Below are positions 31,344 to 44,001 of a stretch of 44,379 bases of DNA, piece by piece (position 1 is the first letter of the stretch; the number at the start of each line of letters is the position of its first letter). The DNA comes from Escherichia phage PEC9: sequence record ON548431.1, one strand, 5' to 3'. Both the position numbers and the translations under genes were made by a program. The notes beneath the pieces are model-generated. The model saw nothing but the letters and a program-made list of their open reading frames with translations. It was not told the DNA's origin and did not search any database.

Positions 31344-31586
31344 CTATTTAAACTCCGTTGTGCGGATTTCCTTGCGTGGTATAAATTTGCCGTCTTTCTC
31401 GACCCAGCAAGTGCCACCGCGCCACTGGGTGTTACGACCTGTTAGTTCTGCGTAGACAATCCGGCATTCATATTTATCGAGGTTATACGTGCAGGAAATC
31501 GGCAGCAGGAGACAAAAGAATAAGAACAGCACCATACACACCCAAAAACGTAAATCCCCGTCGTCGTCAAAAAAGAATCGTTTCAT
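31344..31586 (-). CDS. Small membrane protein (80 aa)
   Basis: ATG 31586 with GAGGA RBS; one strong hydrophobic helix (FWVCMVLFLFFCLLLPI). Confidence 0.4.
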   Translation of the reverse strand: MKRFFFDDDGDLRFWVCMVLFLFFCLLLPISCTYNLDKYECRIVYAELTGRNTQWRGGTCWVEKDGKFIPRKEIRTTEFK

Positions 31587-37391: not shown

Positions 37392-38177
37392 TTAACGGCG
37401 GCGACGTTTACGTGGTGCTTCGTCTTCGTCGTCTTCGTCCTCATCTTCATCGTCGCGCGGCTTACGACGTTTACGAGGTTTCTCATCTTCGTCGTCTTCG
37501 TCGTCATCGCGGCGCTTGGACTTTTTGGACTTGCGCGGCTTGTCGTCTTCGTCATCGTCATCACGACGTTTTGACTTTTTGGCCTTGCGCGGGCTTTCAT
37601 CTTCGTCATCGTTGTCCAGGTCTTCGTCGGAGCAAGAAGACCCGCCACCGCCGAAGGCTTCACCGTCATCACGGAAGCGTAAACCCAGCAAGCCAGCACC
37701 GAGTCCCTTGCCGTTGGTGTTGTTCCACGCCCAAATATCCAAGGACACGTTGCAATAACATCCGGAGTAGATCTCCTGGCCTTCGATCTCGTCGCCTTCT
37801 ACGGTCAGACCTTGTTCAGTCTGCTTCTCGCCGAGTGACGTTTGAATGTTTGGCTGTTTGAACGATTTGGCGTTGATGTACAACATGCCTTCGAATTCTT
37901 CGGTCACTTCATCGCGCTCGTCACCGTCGCGAACTGCGCATTCCTTAGAATCCTGTGCGTAGTGGCGGTCCATCCACTTATCGGCGTTCTTCTCGGATTT
38001 CAGCTTGTCGGTGAGCACTGCGCGCGCTGCCGCTTCCACTTTGTCCACCTGCGGATCTTCTTTATCAAGAAGAATCACTGCACGGTATGCCGGTTTTTGA
38101 CCATCCTGTTTAGGGGTATCGCGTTCCCAAATTTTAAGGAAACATACGCGCACATTTTTCAGGTTGACTTTAGCCAT
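37392..38177 (-). CDS. SSB-like protein with alternating acidic/basic repetitive C-terminal tail
   Basis: 261 aa from ATG 38177 (GAGGA RBS); C-terminal about 80 aa made of repeats such as DEDE-KPRKSKKSKRR-DDDEDDEDE; co-located with Cas4-like nuclease; SSB role inferred. Confidence 0.5.
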   Translation of the reverse strand: MAKVNLKNVRVCFLKIWERDTPKQDGQKPAYRAVILLDKEDPQVDKVEAAARAVLTDKLKSEKNADKWMDRHYAQDSKECAVRDGDERDEVTEEFEGMLYINAKSFKQPNIQTSLGEKQTEQGLTVEGDEIEGQEIYSGCYCNVSLDIWAWNNTNGKGLGAGLLGLRFRDDGEAFGGGGSSCSDEDLDNDDEDESPRKAKKSKRRDDDDEDDKPRKSKKSKRRDDDEDDEDEKPRKRRKPRDDEDEDEDDEDEAPRKRRRR

Positions 38178-38232
38178 TTTCCAATTCCTCATTTTAACAT
38201 GTATCGGGGCTATTGTGAGCCACCCCGTTCGG

Positions 38233-38267: not shown

Positions 38268-38510
38268 TCAAGCACTTTCATTAAAAAGATTTCTGGTCAC
38301 GTAGTTGGTAGCGTTCTCGACCCCGCTTAACGGCGGTCGGTCGATGTTCTTCTCCACCCAGTCGACGGCAGCGTCACTATATCCGTCGTCCAGCCAGCGG
38401 GTCGGATGGCGAATCATCCACGCCACCATTAACACGCCTTGCACGCAATGCAGGATAAAGCCCAGCGCGCCGAGCAAAAACATCAATAAGATTGCGAATA
38501 CTTTATTCAT
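38268..38510 (-). CDS. Small membrane protein (80 aa)
   Basis: GAGGA RBS; two hydrophobic helices (FAILLMFLLGALGFILHCVQGVLMVAWMI). Confidence 0.45.
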   Translation of the reverse strand: MNKVFAILLMFLLGALGFILHCVQGVLMVAWMIRHPTRWLDDGYSDAAVDWVEKNIDRPPLSGVENATNYVTRNLFNESA

Positions 38511-39933
38511 TGCTTAAGTCCTCGTCGGTAGCTTCAGACCACGCGGGGCGCGGGTCGTCGATTGGTGCTAACACCGGTTTTGCAGGTGCGCGTGTGATTT
38601 TAGCACACAGCTTCGCCCACACTTTCGGCTTCTCGTCCTTCAATACCTTCTCGGCATCCGTAGGACTGAGCAATGTTTCTTTGTACATCACATCGCGCTT
38701 GATCCTGGCCTTCGTGAAGATTTCAATCACTTCGCTCTCGTCCGCCCACTTACGGATACCTTCCTTACCGGCAACCATCTTGAGGCCCAGCGATTCGCCA
38801 TCGCCAGCCATGACCGCCTTGAATACCGCGGACTCGATAGCCTTGATGTGCTGGCGCATTGCGTCCAGACCTTCATATGCCTTGCGAAGTTCCGCCGCGC
38901 TCATAGCGCCGGGGGCCGCTTCTTTCTTACCACGCTTCGCGCGTCGTGCCTCCTTCCGGGCTTCGCGGGCCATATTGCGGGCATGGTTGGCGCATTCTTC
39001 CTCTGTCGCAATACTCACGTCGTCGCCCAGATCGTCATCGGTTGCCGTTGGTGGTGTCATCGTGTCGATTGCGGCCTTAGTGCGGGCACTACACTGATCC
39101 GCAAATCTGCACCACTGGCACGCATCAACGCTGGGCCGGAAGTCGGCGCGGGTGAGTCCTTTTTTACCACGGGCGTACGCTTCCAGTGCGGCGATAGCAC
39201 GCTTGGACGCAAACTTCGCGAATATCTCCAGCGCTTCCACTGAGATATCCCACTCTGACGCCCCGCCGCAATACGGCTGGAAGATGACCAGGCGCACGGT
39301 CGTAATGTCATACATGGTTTGCAGCTTGCGCAGCAGGCCGAGCGCGTACAACATAAGCTGTTTGTTTTCTTTTGCCTCGACCTTATGTCGCCCGGTCTTC
39401 AGGTCGCCAACAATCAGCATGTACGTGCCGTCGGTCTTTTTCATGACCGTGACCATATCGGCAGTGCCGAACGTTTTAACCCTGTTGCCTTCGATCTCGA
39501 AGCCTGGGTGAAGGACGCGGGTCAGATCGGCGCGCATCTCAAGCTGGACAAACTCCGCCACTTCGAGGAGCGGTCGCCAGTGGTCGATGTACGCGTCGCA
39601 CTGTTTCACCATGTCGTCATTGACCAGTACGCCGCCTTTCGGTGCTTTCGGGTGCGCCTTTACTGGCCCCTTGCCTTCATTCTCGACGTAACATCCTTTA
39701 TACGTCTTTGCTGTTATCAGCTTTTCACCGGCGATAATGCGGTTTAGCACCACTTCAGATACGGTGTGCATACTCGTACCGTTAATCGCGGCTTGCCCGG
39801 ATTCGTTCGGGATATCTTTTTCTACCACCAGGGCGGCGGGACACCCCATCCATTTTTTAGCACCGGATGGCCCGAGTAATGAGTGTTCCGTATTGCTGCC
39901 GGATTGCGTTTTACGTTTTGGTTTAATCGCCAT
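38503..39933 (-). CDS. RecB-family (Cas4-like) PD-(D/E)xK nuclease with Fe-S cysteine cluster
   Basis: 476 aa; motifs D...GDLK, QLMLY (QxxxY) and four Cys (QPYCGG, CQWCRFADQC); basic/acidic C-terminal extension. Confidence 0.6.
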   Translation of the reverse strand: MAIKPKRKTQSGSNTEHSLLGPSGAKKWMGCPAALVVEKDIPNESGQAAINGTSMHTVSEVVLNRIIAGEKLITAKTYKGCYVENEGKGPVKAHPKAPKGGVLVNDDMVKQCDAYIDHWRPLLEVAEFVQLEMRADLTRVLHPGFEIEGNRVKTFGTADMVTVMKKTDGTYMLIVGDLKTGRHKVEAKENKQLMLYALGLLRKLQTMYDITTVRLVIFQPYCGGASEWDISVEALEIFAKFASKRAIAALEAYARGKKGLTRADFRPSVDACQWCRFADQCSARTKAAIDTMTPPTATDDDLGDDVSIATEEECANHARNMAREARKEARRAKRGKKEAAPGAMSAAELRKAYEGLDAMRQHIKAIESAVFKAVMAGDGESLGLKMVAGKEGIRKWADESEVIEIFTKARIKRDVMYKETLLSPTDAEKVLKDEKPKVWAKLCAKITRAPAKPVLAPIDDPRPAWSEATDEDLSNE

Positions 39934-40121: not shown

Positions 40122-40373
40122 TTATTTTGTCTCCCAGCGGTCAATTGTTTTTGCTTCTGATGCAACGGCGAATCTAACATATTCTAGGTTGGAATCCGCC
40201 CAAATATAAAAGTCGGGATTAGTAAAGGTGGTGCGCTTAATTTGCGCGGGGGTGTTGCGGCGTTTATCAATTACGGCAACGCGCGATTGAAAGCTGCCGA
40301 TGCGTTCGAATAGCCAATAATATGGGCGCTGGTCGCGAGAATCCACCGCCTCGATTAATGTAAATCGTGCCAT
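40122..40373 (-). CDS. Hypothetical protein (83 aa)
   Basis: ATG 40373 with GAGGA RBS; preceded by terminator. Confidence 0.45.
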   Translation of the reverse strand: MARFTLIEAVDSRDQRPYYWLFERIGSFQSRVAVIDKRRNTPAQIKRTTFTNPDFYIWADSNLEYVRFAVASEAKTIDRWETK

Positions 40374-40380
40374 TGTCTCG

Positions 40381-40412
40381 TCCTCTAAAAAGAGGCCCGC
40401 TAATCTGCGGGC
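40381..40412 (-). terminator. Rho-independent terminator (minus strand) after first early gene
   Basis: Minus-strand reading: GCCCGC-AGATTA-GCGGGC followed by CTCTTTTT. Confidence 0.5.
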
Positions 40413-40551
40413 CAGATAATATTAGTCTTCTCCGCCGAGTTGTTTATAAACTTCGTCCGGGTCGTCGCCTCTTTCTTCGCAGAAGGCGGTGAATGCCGCC
40501 CAGCTTTCTGCTATGAAATCGAGCGCGATTCTCATTTCATAGTCCATGATA

Positions 40552-40995
40552 TTAGTCCTCCAGTTCGAAATAGGTTTCGACGATTTCTTTCAATTCGGTG
40601 TGGAAGTCCGCCACGTCGTCGTCTTCCAGTTTAGCGATTGATTTGATCTCGAACGATTCCAGCAGGTCGTCGAATTCGTCGTTCGCATCGTCATCATCAC
40701 CGCCTGCGATAATCGCGGCATACTGTTTGATTTCGTCGCGCATCTCTGCCAGCGGGTCGGCATCTTTCTTACCTTTGCCTTTCGCTGGTGCTTTTTTACC
40801 CTTCGCCGTGGCTTTTTTACCTTTCGCCGGTGCTTCGTCTTCAGCGTCGTCATCTTCTACGACTTCTTTTTTGGCCTTAGCTGGCTTTTTATCTTCCTGC
40901 TTACCAACGGCAGCGCCGACGGTTTCATAATGCTTAGCGATGGTTTCCAGTGCTACTACGCCGCGAGTGATCAGGTTTACGATTTGCTCAAACAT
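40552..40995 (-). CDS. Highly acidic protein with Lys-rich AKGKK repeats; first gene of minus-strand early block
   Basis: 147 aa from ATG 40995 (GGAGAT RBS); KGKK repeats followed by Asp/Glu-rich C-terminal half; ORF-track N-terminal extension rejected. Confidence 0.5.
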   Translation of the reverse strand: MFEQIVNLITRGVVALETIAKHYETVGAAVGKQEDKKPAKAKKEVVEDDDAEDEAPAKGKKATAKGKKAPAKGKGKKDADPLAEMRDEIKQYAAIIAGGDDDDANDEFDDLLESFEIKSIAKLEDDDVADFHTELKEIVETYFELED

Positions 40996-41198
40996 GGTAT
41001 ATCTCCGATTGGTTAAGTTTAGGTGTCGACCATTAACTTCGTCGGTGGCCTTAACATAGCGCCCGGTTGCGCGTTCTCCCTTTCGGGTAGTGGACCGGGT
41101 TATATAATCACGGTTGGGAATCCTGACACTTCGATCCGGCCCCTGCGTTGCCCCTCTCCAGTTTGCGTCCTGCATCCTGTCGACGGAGTGAATATTAG

Positions 41199-41208
41199 AT
41201 TGGTTGCA
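41199..41208. promoter_or_regulatory. Recurrent motif ATTGGTTGCA in divergent early control region
   Basis: Exact 10-mer between minus early gene (40995) and plus gene (41397). Confidence 0.45.
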
Positions 41209-41230
41209 GAAGGGAGTCAACAACTAATTT

Positions 41231-41265
41231 AAAAAAAAAAGCGCCGAAGCAAAATGCGACGGCGC
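41231..41265 (-). terminator. Hairpin with A10/T10 tract, terminator-like on minus strand
   Basis: Plus strand: ten A then GCGCCG-N13-CGGCGC; on minus strand hairpin is followed by ten T. Confidence 0.4.
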
Positions 41266-41336
41266 TAACCAATAAGAGACAATGAGACGGGAATTATTAT
41301 TACACGCGTGCGCGCCCGTTTCAATATCCAAAGGAT

Positions 41337-41365
41337 TTGACACCGTGCAGTTTTGGGTGTAGTTT
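41337..41365 (+). promoter_or_regulatory. Candidate sigma70 promoter for the plus-strand HTH/primase operon
   Basis: TTGACA at 41337-41342, 17-bp spacer, TAGTTT at 41360-41365; about 30 bp upstream of RBS AGGAG and ATG 41397. Confidence 0.4.
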
Positions 41366-41396
41366 CGTTGGTCATTAGCCAACAGGAGACTGAATT

Positions 41397-41726
41397 ATGA
41401 ATATCAAAGAAGCAATTGAAGTGTTATCTAATGCAATCCGCGGCGAAGCGGGTAAATCCTGGTATTACACAAATGCGGTGGATACTCTGTTATTTGAAGT
41501 GTCCAGATTATCGCGTGCTGAGAAGGAGCTTACCGCGAAGCTGGAATTACTCAACGGCACGGCAGCAAGCAAGCTGCAAAAGCACAATGAAGAAATGGAA
41601 GAATACAAAAAACAGGTTATCCGTTTGCGCGCCGAGGGCAAATCCTGGGCAATGATCGCTGAGTTGACAGGAATTAATCAGAGCACCGTGCGCTCCTGGG
41701 TACGCAATAATAAAACTTCGAAGTAA
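41397..41726 (+). CDS. Small HTH DNA-binding protein (putative transcription regulator)
   Basis: 109 aa; C-terminal helix-turn-helix-like segment (SWAMIAELTGINQSTVRSWV); AGGAG RBS. Confidence 0.5.
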   Translation: MNIKEAIEVLSNAIRGEAGKSWYYTNAVDTLLFEVSRLSRAEKELTAKLELLNGTAASKLQKHNEEMEEYKKQVIRLRAEGKSWAMIAELTGINQSTVRSWVRNNKTSK

Positions 41727-41736
41727 GGCAACGGCA

Positions 41737-44001
41737 ATGAGCTTAATTAAATTCGCGGTAACACGACCCGCTAAAAAAGGCGAAAAAGCCAGGGCGGAAA
41801 ACTTCCAGATGACCACCGATGAATTTTTCGAATTTATCAATGACGCGAAAGAAATCTCCTCGGTGCATATCAACAAGACGGAAGATAAAGCCGAGTATGC
41901 GCGCCGCAAGCGTAAGGCCGATGGCATCGTAGCTTATACCAGTGACGGCCTGCGCCGCAAGACCAGTGCGGTGGACCGCTCGATCCTGTTCTTCGATATT
42001 GACCGCACCGACACTCGCACCCTACGCCGCTGCCGTAAGGCTTTCATCGACGCGGGGCTGGAGCACGTATTCCACACAACCACCGGCGACCGCCACCCGC
42101 TGAAAGGCGGCACGCGTTGCGCCCGTTTCCTGGTACTCACTGACAAGCCTGTACCGGCGGAAGACCTGGGCCGTGTCCAGTATGCGCTATTACACCAACT
42201 TGGCCTGTCAGATGTGGACTTCGACGATTGCACGAAAGACACAAACCGCCTGATGTACCTGCCGCACCAGCAGTCTGTCATTAAGTGTCACTACGGCAAA
42301 CGTGCCCGCGTCCGTCGTCTGCTCCGCCTGGCGGATACGCTTGGCGTGGAGAAGGAAGAAGTACGCCGCGAGCTTACCCAGGGCGACGACGCAGTGGCAG
42401 ACGGCATTCTGGACTGGTGCTTCCAGGCAGGATTCGAGGAGTTATCTTCCGGTCGCGGTTATGAAGTGCCGTGCCCGAACGAACATCTGCACAGCGGCGA
42501 AGGGTCGACGGCTATCATGGTCAAGGATGGCGAGATCCGTTTCAAGTGTATGCACACCGGCAACGAGTGTTGCTCGGAGCTAAATAGACACCAGCACCTG
42601 GCGCTACGTCTTATCGGGATACCGGACCACCTGAACGTCGAGCCGCACAACATGTCACGTAAGCAAATTGCCGCCATCCTCCCAGGGCTGGACGACGAGG
42701 AAGTCGAATCCTTATATGAACATATTGTTGATGCGGTTGGCGACGGCGAAGAATACGGCGTGTGCACCGATGCGGATCTGGATAACGAGCCGGTCGCACT
42801 ATTCAGTAAGCACGACCCGATCATCGAAGGTCTGATTAACTTCAAATCGACCTGGTATATGGCTGGCGAGTCGAACATCGGCAAGTCCTTCTATGTGCTG
42901 GGGCAGATGGGCGCGGTTGCCGCGGGTATCCCGTTTGGCGGTGCGAAGGTCGTCCAGTCTCATTGCTTCTATTTCGATGCGGAAGGTGGTGAAGCCTCTA
43001 ACCAGCGCAAAGAAGCATTGCAGATTAAATACGAGCACGACCTGGACAAGCTGCACATTATCGACCTGCAGTCTCGCGGCTGGGATATCACCAGCAAGTC
43101 CGGTTTGCGCGAAGTTATCAGCTTTATCAACCGCACCGCTAACGGCGAACCTGTTGGCCTGGTGGCGTTCGACTCACTCAACCAGACTGTTGCGCTGCGG
43201 TCCGCCGATGCTAAACCGTTTGACGAGAACAACGCCAGCGATATGGGTGAAGTAGTCAAAGCGCTGAAAGCCATTGCGGAAAACACGGGGGGCAGTGCGG
43301 GCGTCATCCACCACCCGGCGAAGGGTGCAAACGGCAGCAGAACCCCACGCGGATCCGGCGCACTGCATGGCGCTGTCGATTCCGCTTTCTTCCTGGAACA
43401 GCCGGACGACAACCAACCAGGCCAATTGAACCTGTATCACGAAAAATCACGTAACGGTATCAAGCAAGCGCCGCGTGGCTTCGTCCTGCTCAAGTGCAAG
43501 GTGAAGGTGGATCTCCGCAAGTCAGAAGCGTTCGAGGCGCACCAGTCCACCAGCACCGGTCCGGACTTCGGAGACGTAGTTGCCGGTTGGGACGTCAAAC
43601 CAATTGCGTCCACCCCGCGCGACGAGACTTTATACCTCGTACCGGTCGCCCTGGCACCGTTCGCTATAGAACAGGCGAAGGCCGCAGGAAAAGCCGCAGT
43701 TAAGGAAGAGAACACCGCCGGACCGCGCACCGAAAAAGAAAAGGTACTTTACGCGGCCCTGGAAAAACTGATGGAAGATAACCCGGACCATACTGGTTTC
43801 AGTAAATCGGCAATTGTCCGCCAGGCTGGACTCGCGAAGGGTGGCACTTCGACGAAGGCAATAGACGATATGGTCGAGCGCGGCGTGATTGGTTTCTATA
43901 CAGACCCGCACACCGGGGCCATATATGGGTCATCGAATTTAGTCATTAAATCGGATATCCCCATTACACTTTCTGCGACCGATGACGACCTGAAAGATTA
44001 A
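41737..44001 (+). CDS. Primase-helicase (N-terminal primase-like domain, central P-loop ATPase, C-terminal putative DNA-binding domain)
   Basis: 754 aa; acidic motif FFDIDRTD, Cys/His cluster (CPNEHLHSGEG ... FKCMHTGNEC), Walker A GESNIGKS, Walker B-like LVAFDSL; C-terminal domain assignment is a guess. Confidence 0.7.
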   Translation: MSLIKFAVTRPAKKGEKARAENFQMTTDEFFEFINDAKEISSVHINKTEDKAEYARRKRKADGIVAYTSDGLRRKTSAVDRSILFFDIDRTDTRTLRRCRKAFIDAGLEHVFHTTTGDRHPLKGGTRCARFLVLTDKPVPAEDLGRVQYALLHQLGLSDVDFDDCTKDTNRLMYLPHQQSVIKCHYGKRARVRRLLRLADTLGVEKEEVRRELTQGDDAVADGILDWCFQAGFEELSSGRGYEVPCPNEHLHSGEGSTAIMVKDGEIRFKCMHTGNECCSELNRHQHLALRLIGIPDHLNVEPHNMSRKQIAAILPGLDDEEVESLYEHIVDAVGDGEEYGVCTDADLDNEPVALFSKHDPIIEGLINFKSTWYMAGESNIGKSFYVLGQMGAVAAGIPFGGAKVVQSHCFYFDAEGGEASNQRKEALQIKYEHDLDKLHIIDLQSRGWDITSKSGLREVISFINRTANGEPVGLVAFDSLNQTVALRSADAKPFDENNASDMGEVVKALKAIAENTGGSAGVIHHPAKGANGSRTPRGSGALHGAVDSAFFLEQPDDNQPGQLNLYHEKSRNGIKQAPRGFVLLKCKVKVDLRKSEAFEAHQSTSTGPDFGDVVAGWDVKPIASTPRDETLYLVPVALAPFAIEQAKAAGKAAVKEENTAGPRTEKEKVLYAALEKLMEDNPDHTGFSKSAIVRQAGLAKGGTSTKAIDDMVERGVIGFYTDPHTGAIYGSSNLVIKSDIPITLSATDDDLKD

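Follow-up and report, generated by a model that had tools for sequence, protein, structure and literature searches.

What is the function of the protein made from the first gene of the leftward operon in a Dhillonvirus genome? Dhillonviruses are among the most often isolated E. coli siphoviruses, and they are used in screens of defense systems and in phage-therapy engineering. The gene in question occupies positions 40552..40995 (minus strand) of a window of 44,379 bp, which is the whole stretch of DNA analyzed here and which represents Escherichia phage PEC9 (genus Dhillonvirus; HK578/EP23-like siphoviruses). Its product of 147 amino acids finds its best protein match in PEC9_54 and is a homolog of HK578 gp44 (PHROG 3127). 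A sequence-only reading of this DNA had noted AKGKK repeats followed by a half rich in aspartate and glutamate, and had proposed by analogy of composition and position that the protein is a DNA mimic or an anti-restriction factor. The coordinates, the composition and the quoted peptides are all accurate, and the translation contains AKGKKATAKGKKAPAKGKGKK, GGDDDDANDEFDDLLESFE and LEDDDVADFHTELKE verbatim. The proposed function fares less well, as described below. We find that the product is an orphan kept among many phages, whose parts are arranged in a distinctive, adaptor-like way, and that the RNA leader preceding it is the more novel object of this locus.

The gene call itself needs some correction. 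Translation starts at the ATG at 40995 and ends with the stop codon at 40552-40554. The start is fixed by an N-terminus, MFEQ or MLEK, that is kept in all relatives. A Shine-Dalgarno GGAG, read from the sequence at 41003..41006 (minus strand), lies 7 nt 5′ of this ATG and is retained in all aligned phages, with slight variation in the bases around it. A non-coding leader is wrongly included in both the mechanically called ORF (40552-41223) and the 207-amino-acid GenBank call, and the start codon is likewise extended into the leader RNA in several homolog records. We reject an in-frame upstream extension to 207-223 amino acids as coding sequence: its substitutions are radical and show no bias toward third positions, four phages carry a deletion of it, and its RNA forms a covarying fold. 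The 147-codon gene is no chance ORF, as is evident from its presence in about 150 phage records and from pN/pS values of 0.06-0.08. A megablast search with positions 40300-41400 matched 175 phage records, nearly all of them from Dhillonvirus.

Calculation of charge upholds the description of the protein as strongly acidic. It has a pI of 4.53 and contains 39 aspartate and glutamate residues versus 23 lysine and arginine residues, which gives a net charge of -16, or -0.11 per residue. Among the crude ORF calls of the window, in which the target was scored in its ATG-extended form of 207 amino acids, only the 41-amino-acid ORF directly downstream is more acidic per residue. The lysine-rich AKGKK repeats derive from a 21-nt tandem repeat that is present in 3.0 copies at 40774-40835 (Tandem Repeats Finder).

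These features are distributed over three parts of distinct character. Alignments reveal that residues 1-23 (40927..40995, minus strand) form a conserved amphipathic helix with a three-heptad pattern, M[FLM][ED][KQ]..L..R.V.A.E..A, which has a narrow polar stripe and invariant residues at M1, L8, R11, V13, E17 and A20. Residues 24-78 (40762..40926, minus strand) constitute a disordered polyampholyte tether of K, A, G, P, D and E (pLDDT < 50), within which the three in-frame copies of the 21-nt repeat reside. Residues 79-147 (40555..40761, minus strand) make up a conserved acidic three-helix bundle according to AlphaFold2 (AF2; pLDDT 80-88) and alignments, with helices at residues 81-98, 102-114 and 125-143 (pLDDT 80-86). 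The family pattern of this C-domain is LRDEIK...DEFDDLLE...KL.D.DV..FH...Y[FY], and its invariant residues are R86, I89, A93, D106, L111, L112, K122, D125, D127, V128, F131 and Y142. Its 66 residues carry a median net charge of -19 among 144 family members. AF2 models the N-terminal helix (residues 2-24) with low confidence and leaves it undocked from the C-domain, and does so for the full-length protein as well as for a natural 115-amino-acid form with a short linker.

Judging from 21 Dhillonvirus alleles, both ends of the protein are under strong purifying selection, with pN/pS values of 0.084 for the N-helix and 0.061 for the C-domain, and the linker is free. Linker indels within the genus are in-frame and repeat-sized. 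Across the entire family, the linker ranges from 26 to 123 amino acids and averages 16.5 lysine and arginine residues versus 17.9 aspartate and glutamate residues, for a mean net charge of only -1.4.

The family is narrow and restricted to phages, as judged from homologs collected in a word-indexed search and in an exhaustive HMM search that used the C-domain as query. The latter screened 1.8 billion representatives and recovered nothing outside the family, which amounts to 41 clusters at the 50% identity level. Members span 31-212 amino acids when fragments are included, and full-length examples measure approximately 120-212. The acidic domain lies at the C-terminal end in all clusters, duplicated cases excepted, and the three-part architecture is retained down to 24-30% identity. 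The PEC9 protein exhibits all of the defining parts, namely the N-helix, the variable charged linker and the C-terminal domain. Over their full lengths, HK578 gp44 and Sodalis phage SO-1 gp46 are 78% and 81% identical to it, respectively, and Edwardsiella phage eiAU Gp46 is recovered by Foldseek at 35% identity. The sole family match is to the PHROG 3127 profile (E 9e-49), where residues 35-147 align with profile positions 71-178. No function is assigned to HK578 gp44, SO-1 gp46, eiAU Gp46 or PHROG 3127, and our literature search found no experiment on this protein from any phage. Two known functional genes of Dhillonviruses, the Avs2 trigger Ksap1 and the anti-Tmn ORF35, are different genes from the target. 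In the distant homologs P0122, P0123 and P0128, the acidic C-domain occurs in two tandem copies, an arrangement that suggests multivalency.

The composition of the protein invites comparison with T7 Ocr (gp0.3) and ArdA. A DNA mimic of this kind would be expressed first and would block type I restriction-modification (or BREX) in time to prevent cleavage of the genome. Indeed, the target is strongly acidic and helical, concentrates a charge of -19 on a C-domain of 66 amino acids, and is the first gene after an early-type promoter in a short, terminated unit. However, this resemblance does not extend to sequence or fold. Searches of Pfam, NCBIfam and the PDB with the single sequence and with profiles returned no match, so that Ocr, ArdA and other Pfam families are all without a counterpart here, and the Ocr family profile gave no match in Pfam scans at E <= 1 with the target and 31 family members. 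No relative among known DNA mimics and solved structures emerged by sequence, profile or fold, and a BFVD fold search returned only uncharacterized phage homologs such as eiAU Gp46. We also did not find the elongated fold, with carboxylates in the pattern of B-DNA phosphates and similarity to solved structures, that would mark an Ocr or ArdA relative. Unlike in those proteins, the charge sits on one small three-helix domain only, which in the predicted model has a generic fold that is uninformative on function, and the target adds a lysine-rich tether and a hydrophobic N-helix. The Ocr dimer mimics 24 bp of DNA and is far larger than a 65-amino-acid bundle. Furthermore, Ocr is effective because T7 DNA enters the cell slowly and in a manner coupled to transcription, and we know of nothing of this sort for these siphoviruses, which also counts against an Ocr-like role.

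Indirect but pertinent data contradict the anti-restriction half of the earlier interpretation. The BASEL paper (PMC8594841, S1 Data and S5 Table) gives recognition sites and plating efficiencies for phages that include Dhillonviruses with 0-1 EcoKI sites. In these tables, phage KarlBarth (Bas17) has 0 EcoKI and 2 EcoCFT_I sites, with an efficiency of plating (EOP) of 1.4 on EcoKI and 0.0016 on EcoCFT_I in one replicate, and phage GeorgBuechner has 0 sites, with an EOP of 1.25 on both (PMC8594841). Dhillonviruses that lack sites thus show an EOP of about 1. KarlBarth encodes an ortholog of the target with a near-identical C-domain and is nevertheless restricted approximately 600-fold by EcoCFT_I. 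This comparison, made with a wild-type phage, is an indirect test of type I protection; no protection is seen on EcoCFT_I. The EOP of 0.0016 implies that the conserved gene fails to neutralize at least one type I enzyme. PEC9 itself has a single EcoKI site (31351-31363) versus 7.6 ± 2.8 expected, and this depletion suggests that sites are avoided and not that an inhibitor is at work. Together, the EOP values of the two phages and the EcoKI depletion in PEC9 argue that type I escape occurs by site avoidance. Since the gene also belongs to a syntenic core and is kept by purifying selection (see below), we conclude that the protein is not an Ocr-type inhibitor of type I restriction, and we regard an Ocr- or ArdA-like DNA mimic that blocks restriction-modification (or BREX) as very unlikely. 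Dropping this tempting label should stop a wrong annotation from spreading.

The genomic context provides a more useful guide to function. The target opens the leftward operon, and a gene for a helix-turn-helix (HTH) protein and a helicase-primase gene lie divergently from it. Downstream lie homologs of HK578 gp43 and gp42 and genes for a DUF2800/PD-(D/E)XK exonuclease, a gp2.5/Enc34-type single-stranded DNA-binding protein (SSB)-annealase, PolA, a helicase and methyltransferases. In three distant contexts whose gene order was fully read, from relatives at 28-42% identity, we see the same arrangement: the helicase-primase and HTH genes run in one direction, and the target, small ORFs, the DUF2800 exonuclease, the Enc34-type SSB and PolA run in the other. 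More broadly, the exonuclease gene is downstream of the target in all 14 distant loci, and the helicase-primase gene is divergently upstream in 10. The PEC9 window itself shows the family's gene position, upstream of the exonuclease and divergent from the HTH and helicase-primase genes. This fixed synteny in distant loci identifies the target as a core, position-fixed member of a replication and recombination module rather than a shuffled accessory gene, and conservation of this first gene of a replication operon extends to at least several phage genera. Such core synteny combined with purifying selection is unlike the pattern of typical accessory anti-defense genes.

The divergent HTH gene, an ORF of 109 amino acids at 41397-41726 (plus strand), encodes an HTH_23 or sigma-70 region 4-like protein. 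Public records label it "DNA recombination nuclease inhibitor gamma" or "transposase", and both of these labels look unfounded. The "nuclease inhibitor gamma" label belongs to this ORF, and we rejected it as a label for the target. Thus, two kinds of mislabeling already exist at the locus: the names given to the HTH gene, and the start codons extended into the leader. The short acidic motif [ST]D[DE]DL marks three replication and recombination proteins: the exonuclease has two copies, one of them C-terminal, the helicase-primase carries one at its C-terminal end, and the SSB has a further copy. No crude ORF call other than these proteins, encoded at 37392-38192 and 38503-39933 (minus strand) and at 41737-44001 (plus strand), contains this exact motif, which may be a shared docking site.

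The location of the target at the head of an exonuclease and SSB-annealase operon recalls the gam-bet-exo genes of lambda and the 5.9-6 genes of T7. An analogue of lambda Gam or T7 gp5.9 would be an acidic helical decoy that plugs RecBCD (or SbcCD) and thereby shields linear phage DNA. The target is similarly a small acidic helical protein encoded just upstream of a phage exonuclease and annealase/SSB, it has a separate N-terminal helix, and HK578 is sensitive to the OLD defense, which responds when RecBCD of the cell is compromised. However, there is no homology to support this analogy, as comparisons with Gam and gp5.9 gave no Pfam match, PDB sequence match or fold match. In addition, PEC9 contains eight Chi sites (GCTGGTGG) versus 1.2 ± 1.05 expected, an approximately seven-fold enrichment that none of 100 shuffled sequences reaches. 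Seven are on the plus strand (2448, 4788, 7056, 12257, 20939, 28768 and 31140) and one is on the minus strand (43547). This strand preference holds whatever the gene orientation; two of the seven same-strand sites fall within minus-strand genes. Such an excess is the mark of a phage that tames RecBCD rather than inhibiting it, and PEC9 appears to use Chi to attenuate the enzyme, which argues that RecBCD is left active.

Genetic data from HK578 are relevant to the same proposal. Mutants of this phage that escape OLD (preprint 10.64898/2026.07.10.737580) carry a frameshift in gp43, changes in the helicase-primase gp46 or a deletion in the gp45 promoter region, and gp44 is not hit. The escape mutation in the recombination region is in gp43 rather than in the homolog of the target, which counts against gp44 as an inhibitor of RecBCD. 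On balance, we consider a Gam-like function to be quite improbable. The PEC9 counterpart of gp43 is an 83-amino-acid ORF at 40122-40373 (minus strand), and the gp45 promoter region corresponds to the intergenic region 41224-41396, which also houses the target promoters.

How the gene is transcribed bears on the amount of protein made and on another possible function. The target is, as the sequence-only reading had stated, the first gene of the minus-strand block: it is the first after the divergent promoter region and is downstream of a sigma-70-type promoter. This conserved promoter-like site, P2 (TTGACT-17-TAATAT; 41192..41220, minus strand), is a candidate promoter for both the leader and the target, and the HK578 GenBank record annotates the same promoters that are predicted in PEC9. 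The structured leader of the predicted mRNA (41016..41189, minus strand) begins a few bases after the -10 box. The short early unit is closed by a terminator or attenuator at 40385..40413 (minus strand), composed of GGCCCGC-loop-GCGGGCC followed by UCUUUUU (-16.4 kcal/mol, z -3.1). The earlier proposal that a terminator follows soon after the target is correct insofar as this element is real, is conserved in all eight Dhillonviruses aligned (and annotated in the WFI record) and ends a short unit, but a second acidic ORF of 41 amino acids intervenes. The RBS of the next gene overlaps the U-tract of the terminator, and no promoter is present between the terminator and the gp43 homolog. This predicted arrangement of promoter, leader, gene and terminator, with no promoter before the next gene, predicts that more gp44 is made than the downstream enzymes.

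The same layout brings to mind the pL-nutL-N-tL1 region of lambda, and could reflect a transcription factor that acts on host RNA polymerase (RNAP). The target might be an acidic helical module resembling sigma-70 region 1.1 or gp33, or a cofactor for read-through of the terminator at 40385-40413, perhaps acting with the structured leader RNA. A promoter, a structured leader, a first gene, a terminator and then replication genes without a promoter of their own speak for this proposal, and there is no RNA polymerase gene among the annotated or matched genes of the window, so that host RNAP is presumably reprogrammed. However, the leader precedes unrelated genes in other phages and is missing in four Dhillonviruses and in all distant gp44-family loci. 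Leader and target are thus not coupled. Moreover, lambda N-type proteins are basic whereas the target is acidic, the lysine-rich tract is freely variable and so cannot read a specific RNA, and fold matches to RNAP-associated chains are insignificant. For these reasons, a role as an RNAP factor seems unlikely.

We tentatively favor a different role, in which the target is an acidic adaptor or decoy, abundant and multivalent, that engages a DNA-binding protein of replication or recombination. This is the best-supported reading of a protein that has two constrained ends, a free tether, an acidic domain, predicted over-production and linkage to the replication and recombination module, even though we would not yet call it probable. 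The protein would be a conserved early component of this module, made in excess over the downstream enzymes if the promoter-terminator layout operates as predicted, and such an excess fits a stoichiometric binder. The N-helix most likely self-associates or grips a partner, because it does not pack on its own C-domain; oligomerization in particular is suggested by the heptad pattern and by the failure of the helix to dock in the models. The near-neutral tether of lysine, aspartate and glutamate is flexible, and its length drifts by in-frame gain or loss of repeats. Finally, the -19 bundle most likely docks on a basic nucleic-acid-binding surface and would thereby serve as an electrostatic decoy.

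If true, then which protein is the partner? The likeliest would be a conserved DNA-handling protein of replication or recombination that is regulated or recruited by the binding. Candidates are the phage Enc34/gp2.5-type SSB-annealase, the PD-(D/E)XK exonuclease, PolA and the helicase-primase, or a conserved host counterpart. Several facts weigh against an adaptor: a first gene whose position is conserved might just as well encode a regulator, the three-helix fold is generic, and the OLD escapers map to gp43, gp46 and the gp45 promoter rather than to gp44. A multivalent acidic adaptor, if this is what the protein is, would represent a new type of replisome organizer in the widespread module formed by DUF2800, Enc34-type SSB and PolA.

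A more elaborate alternative is a self-assembling hub or condensate scaffold that would concentrate replication and recombination proteins, with a layout like that of PopZ or the ribosomal L7/L12 stalk. PopZ consists of a client helix, a disordered linker and a C-terminal helical oligomerizer. The target has its parts in the same order, with a short N-helix, a polyampholyte linker of tunable length and three C-terminal helices, and is acidic overall. In this analogy, which concerns architecture only, the shared layout of an N-helix, a variable low-complexity linker and a small acidic C-terminal helical domain includes multivalent display, and self-assembly of the target is hypothetical. N-helix oligomers displaying acidic domains on tethers might gather the SSB-annealase, exonuclease, polymerase and helicase-primase into one compartment for replication and recombination; separately, the leader might have a riboswitch-like or RNAP-modifying function. 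The transcription-unit layout predicts the high expression that a scaffold needs, and the [ST]D[DE]DL motif of the SSB, the exonuclease and the helicase-primase is a hint that they dock by a common system. Against this, PopZ and L7/L12 are not homologous to the target (no Pfam match), and the order of roles may differ among these proteins. We consider a hub of this type rather unlikely, both by itself and in combination with such a leader, but if real it would be a viral counterpart to bacterial hub proteins.

The leader can be characterized in considerable depth by comparative analysis. It spans roughly 170 nt and is predicted to form a multi-helix junction. In an alignment of eight Dhillonviruses, which also contains compensatory changes, the approximately 195 nt from promoter to ATG are more conserved than the coding sequence (0.046 per site for the leader versus a synonymous pS of 0.17-0.37). 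Approximately 150 nt of it are missing in four Dhillonviruses. Matches by blastn extend to Drexlerviridae (PHB17, JLBYU38, slyngel, KMI8 and others), Murrayvirus Lumpael, Serratia phage MQ-4 and Alux-21. Every instance that we read is intergenic, is co-oriented with its neighbors, begins a few bases downstream of a -10-like box and is followed by an RBS after 25-60 nt, and the genes downstream are mutually unrelated. With a covariance model, each genome yields a single copy (149-195 bits), and the distant gp44-family loci yield none. Thus, the leader is not specifically coupled to the gp44 family.

Covariation supports the proposed structure. Compensatory changes occur in 19 of 36 base pairs in the model alignment, and pairing amounts to 95-100% in three helices, which use as many as four pair types. 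Scored for covariation, the alignment reaches 0.298, compared with 0.123 in shuffled alignments (0 of 500 reach the observed value) and at most 0.10 for slid partners; because the alignment was fitted to a hand-specified structure, these counts lean toward that structure. The single-sequence folding z-score of -0.6 is unremarkable, so the case for a structure is a comparative one. A search of Rfam 15 at E <= 10 matched nothing in the leader body (41016-41176); the only matches are sub-threshold and fall on the upstream terminator hairpin, one of them extending to 41177. The leader was not found in 5,426 complete E. coli genomes. Collectively, these data make a well-supported case for a new, previously undescribed family of structured RNAs.

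Like HK022 put, lambda nut and riboswitch aptamers, this RNA is located directly after an early promoter and before a terminator, and its multi-helix junction has invariant junction nucleotides. It differs from them in its combination of a length of about 170 nt, at least four helices, the lack of an Rfam match, a single copy per genome and unrelated downstream genes. Candidate roles include a riboswitch-like sensor, a 5′ stabilizer and an RNAP-modifying element. The leader is therefore a candidate for a new class of cis-regulatory RNAs in virulent phages, and it may prove to be a new riboswitch-like or RNAP-modifying element common to several virulent siphovirus families. The covariation already justifies experiments.

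Other elements surround the target. The second gene of the short unit is the ORF of 41 amino acids at 40422..40547 (minus strand), which has a net charge of -9; no other crude ORF call is as acidic per residue. This ORF is an indel with a direct repeat, GA(G/A)GACTAATAT, on both sides: PEC9, jat, 011D5 and WFI have it, and HK578, KarlBarth, SO-1 and Teewinot lack it. This small acidic accessory ORF fits the usual profile of an anti-defense gene better than the target does. Within the terminator (40394-40413, minus strand), the loop reads AGATTA in some phages and TAATCT in others, such that the whole palindrome is flipped. A search for iteron-like origin repeats in 40950-41450 gave nothing convincing, and no tRNA-like genes were found in the window.

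Upstream of P2 is a mini-unit (41230..41324, minus strand) composed of a promoter-like site, P1 (TTGAAA-17-AATAAT, preceded by TG), and a nearly invariant stretch of approximately 55 nt whose end is a hairpin with a run of 9-10 T residues. The hairpin has a folding energy of -16.2 kcal/mol (z -3.6). This unit is a candidate small RNA. The 5′ part of its putative transcript, TCTCTTATTGGTTA, could pair at 12 of 14 positions with the RBS region of the target, TAACCAATCGGAGA (41015-41002); by our own estimate, about 0.4 such matches are expected by chance, so this pairing is no more than putative. The motif ACCAAT/ACCAAC appears in the P2 spacer (41198-41205) and at the target RBS (41007-41014), is inverted in the small RNA unit (41266-41279), and takes the form of a palindrome, GTTGGnTAATGACCAAC (~41365-41385), in the 5′ UTR of the divergent HTH gene. 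This palindrome is perfect in most relatives, and PEC9 has GTTGGC. All of these sites look like operators, perhaps for the 109-amino-acid HTH protein.
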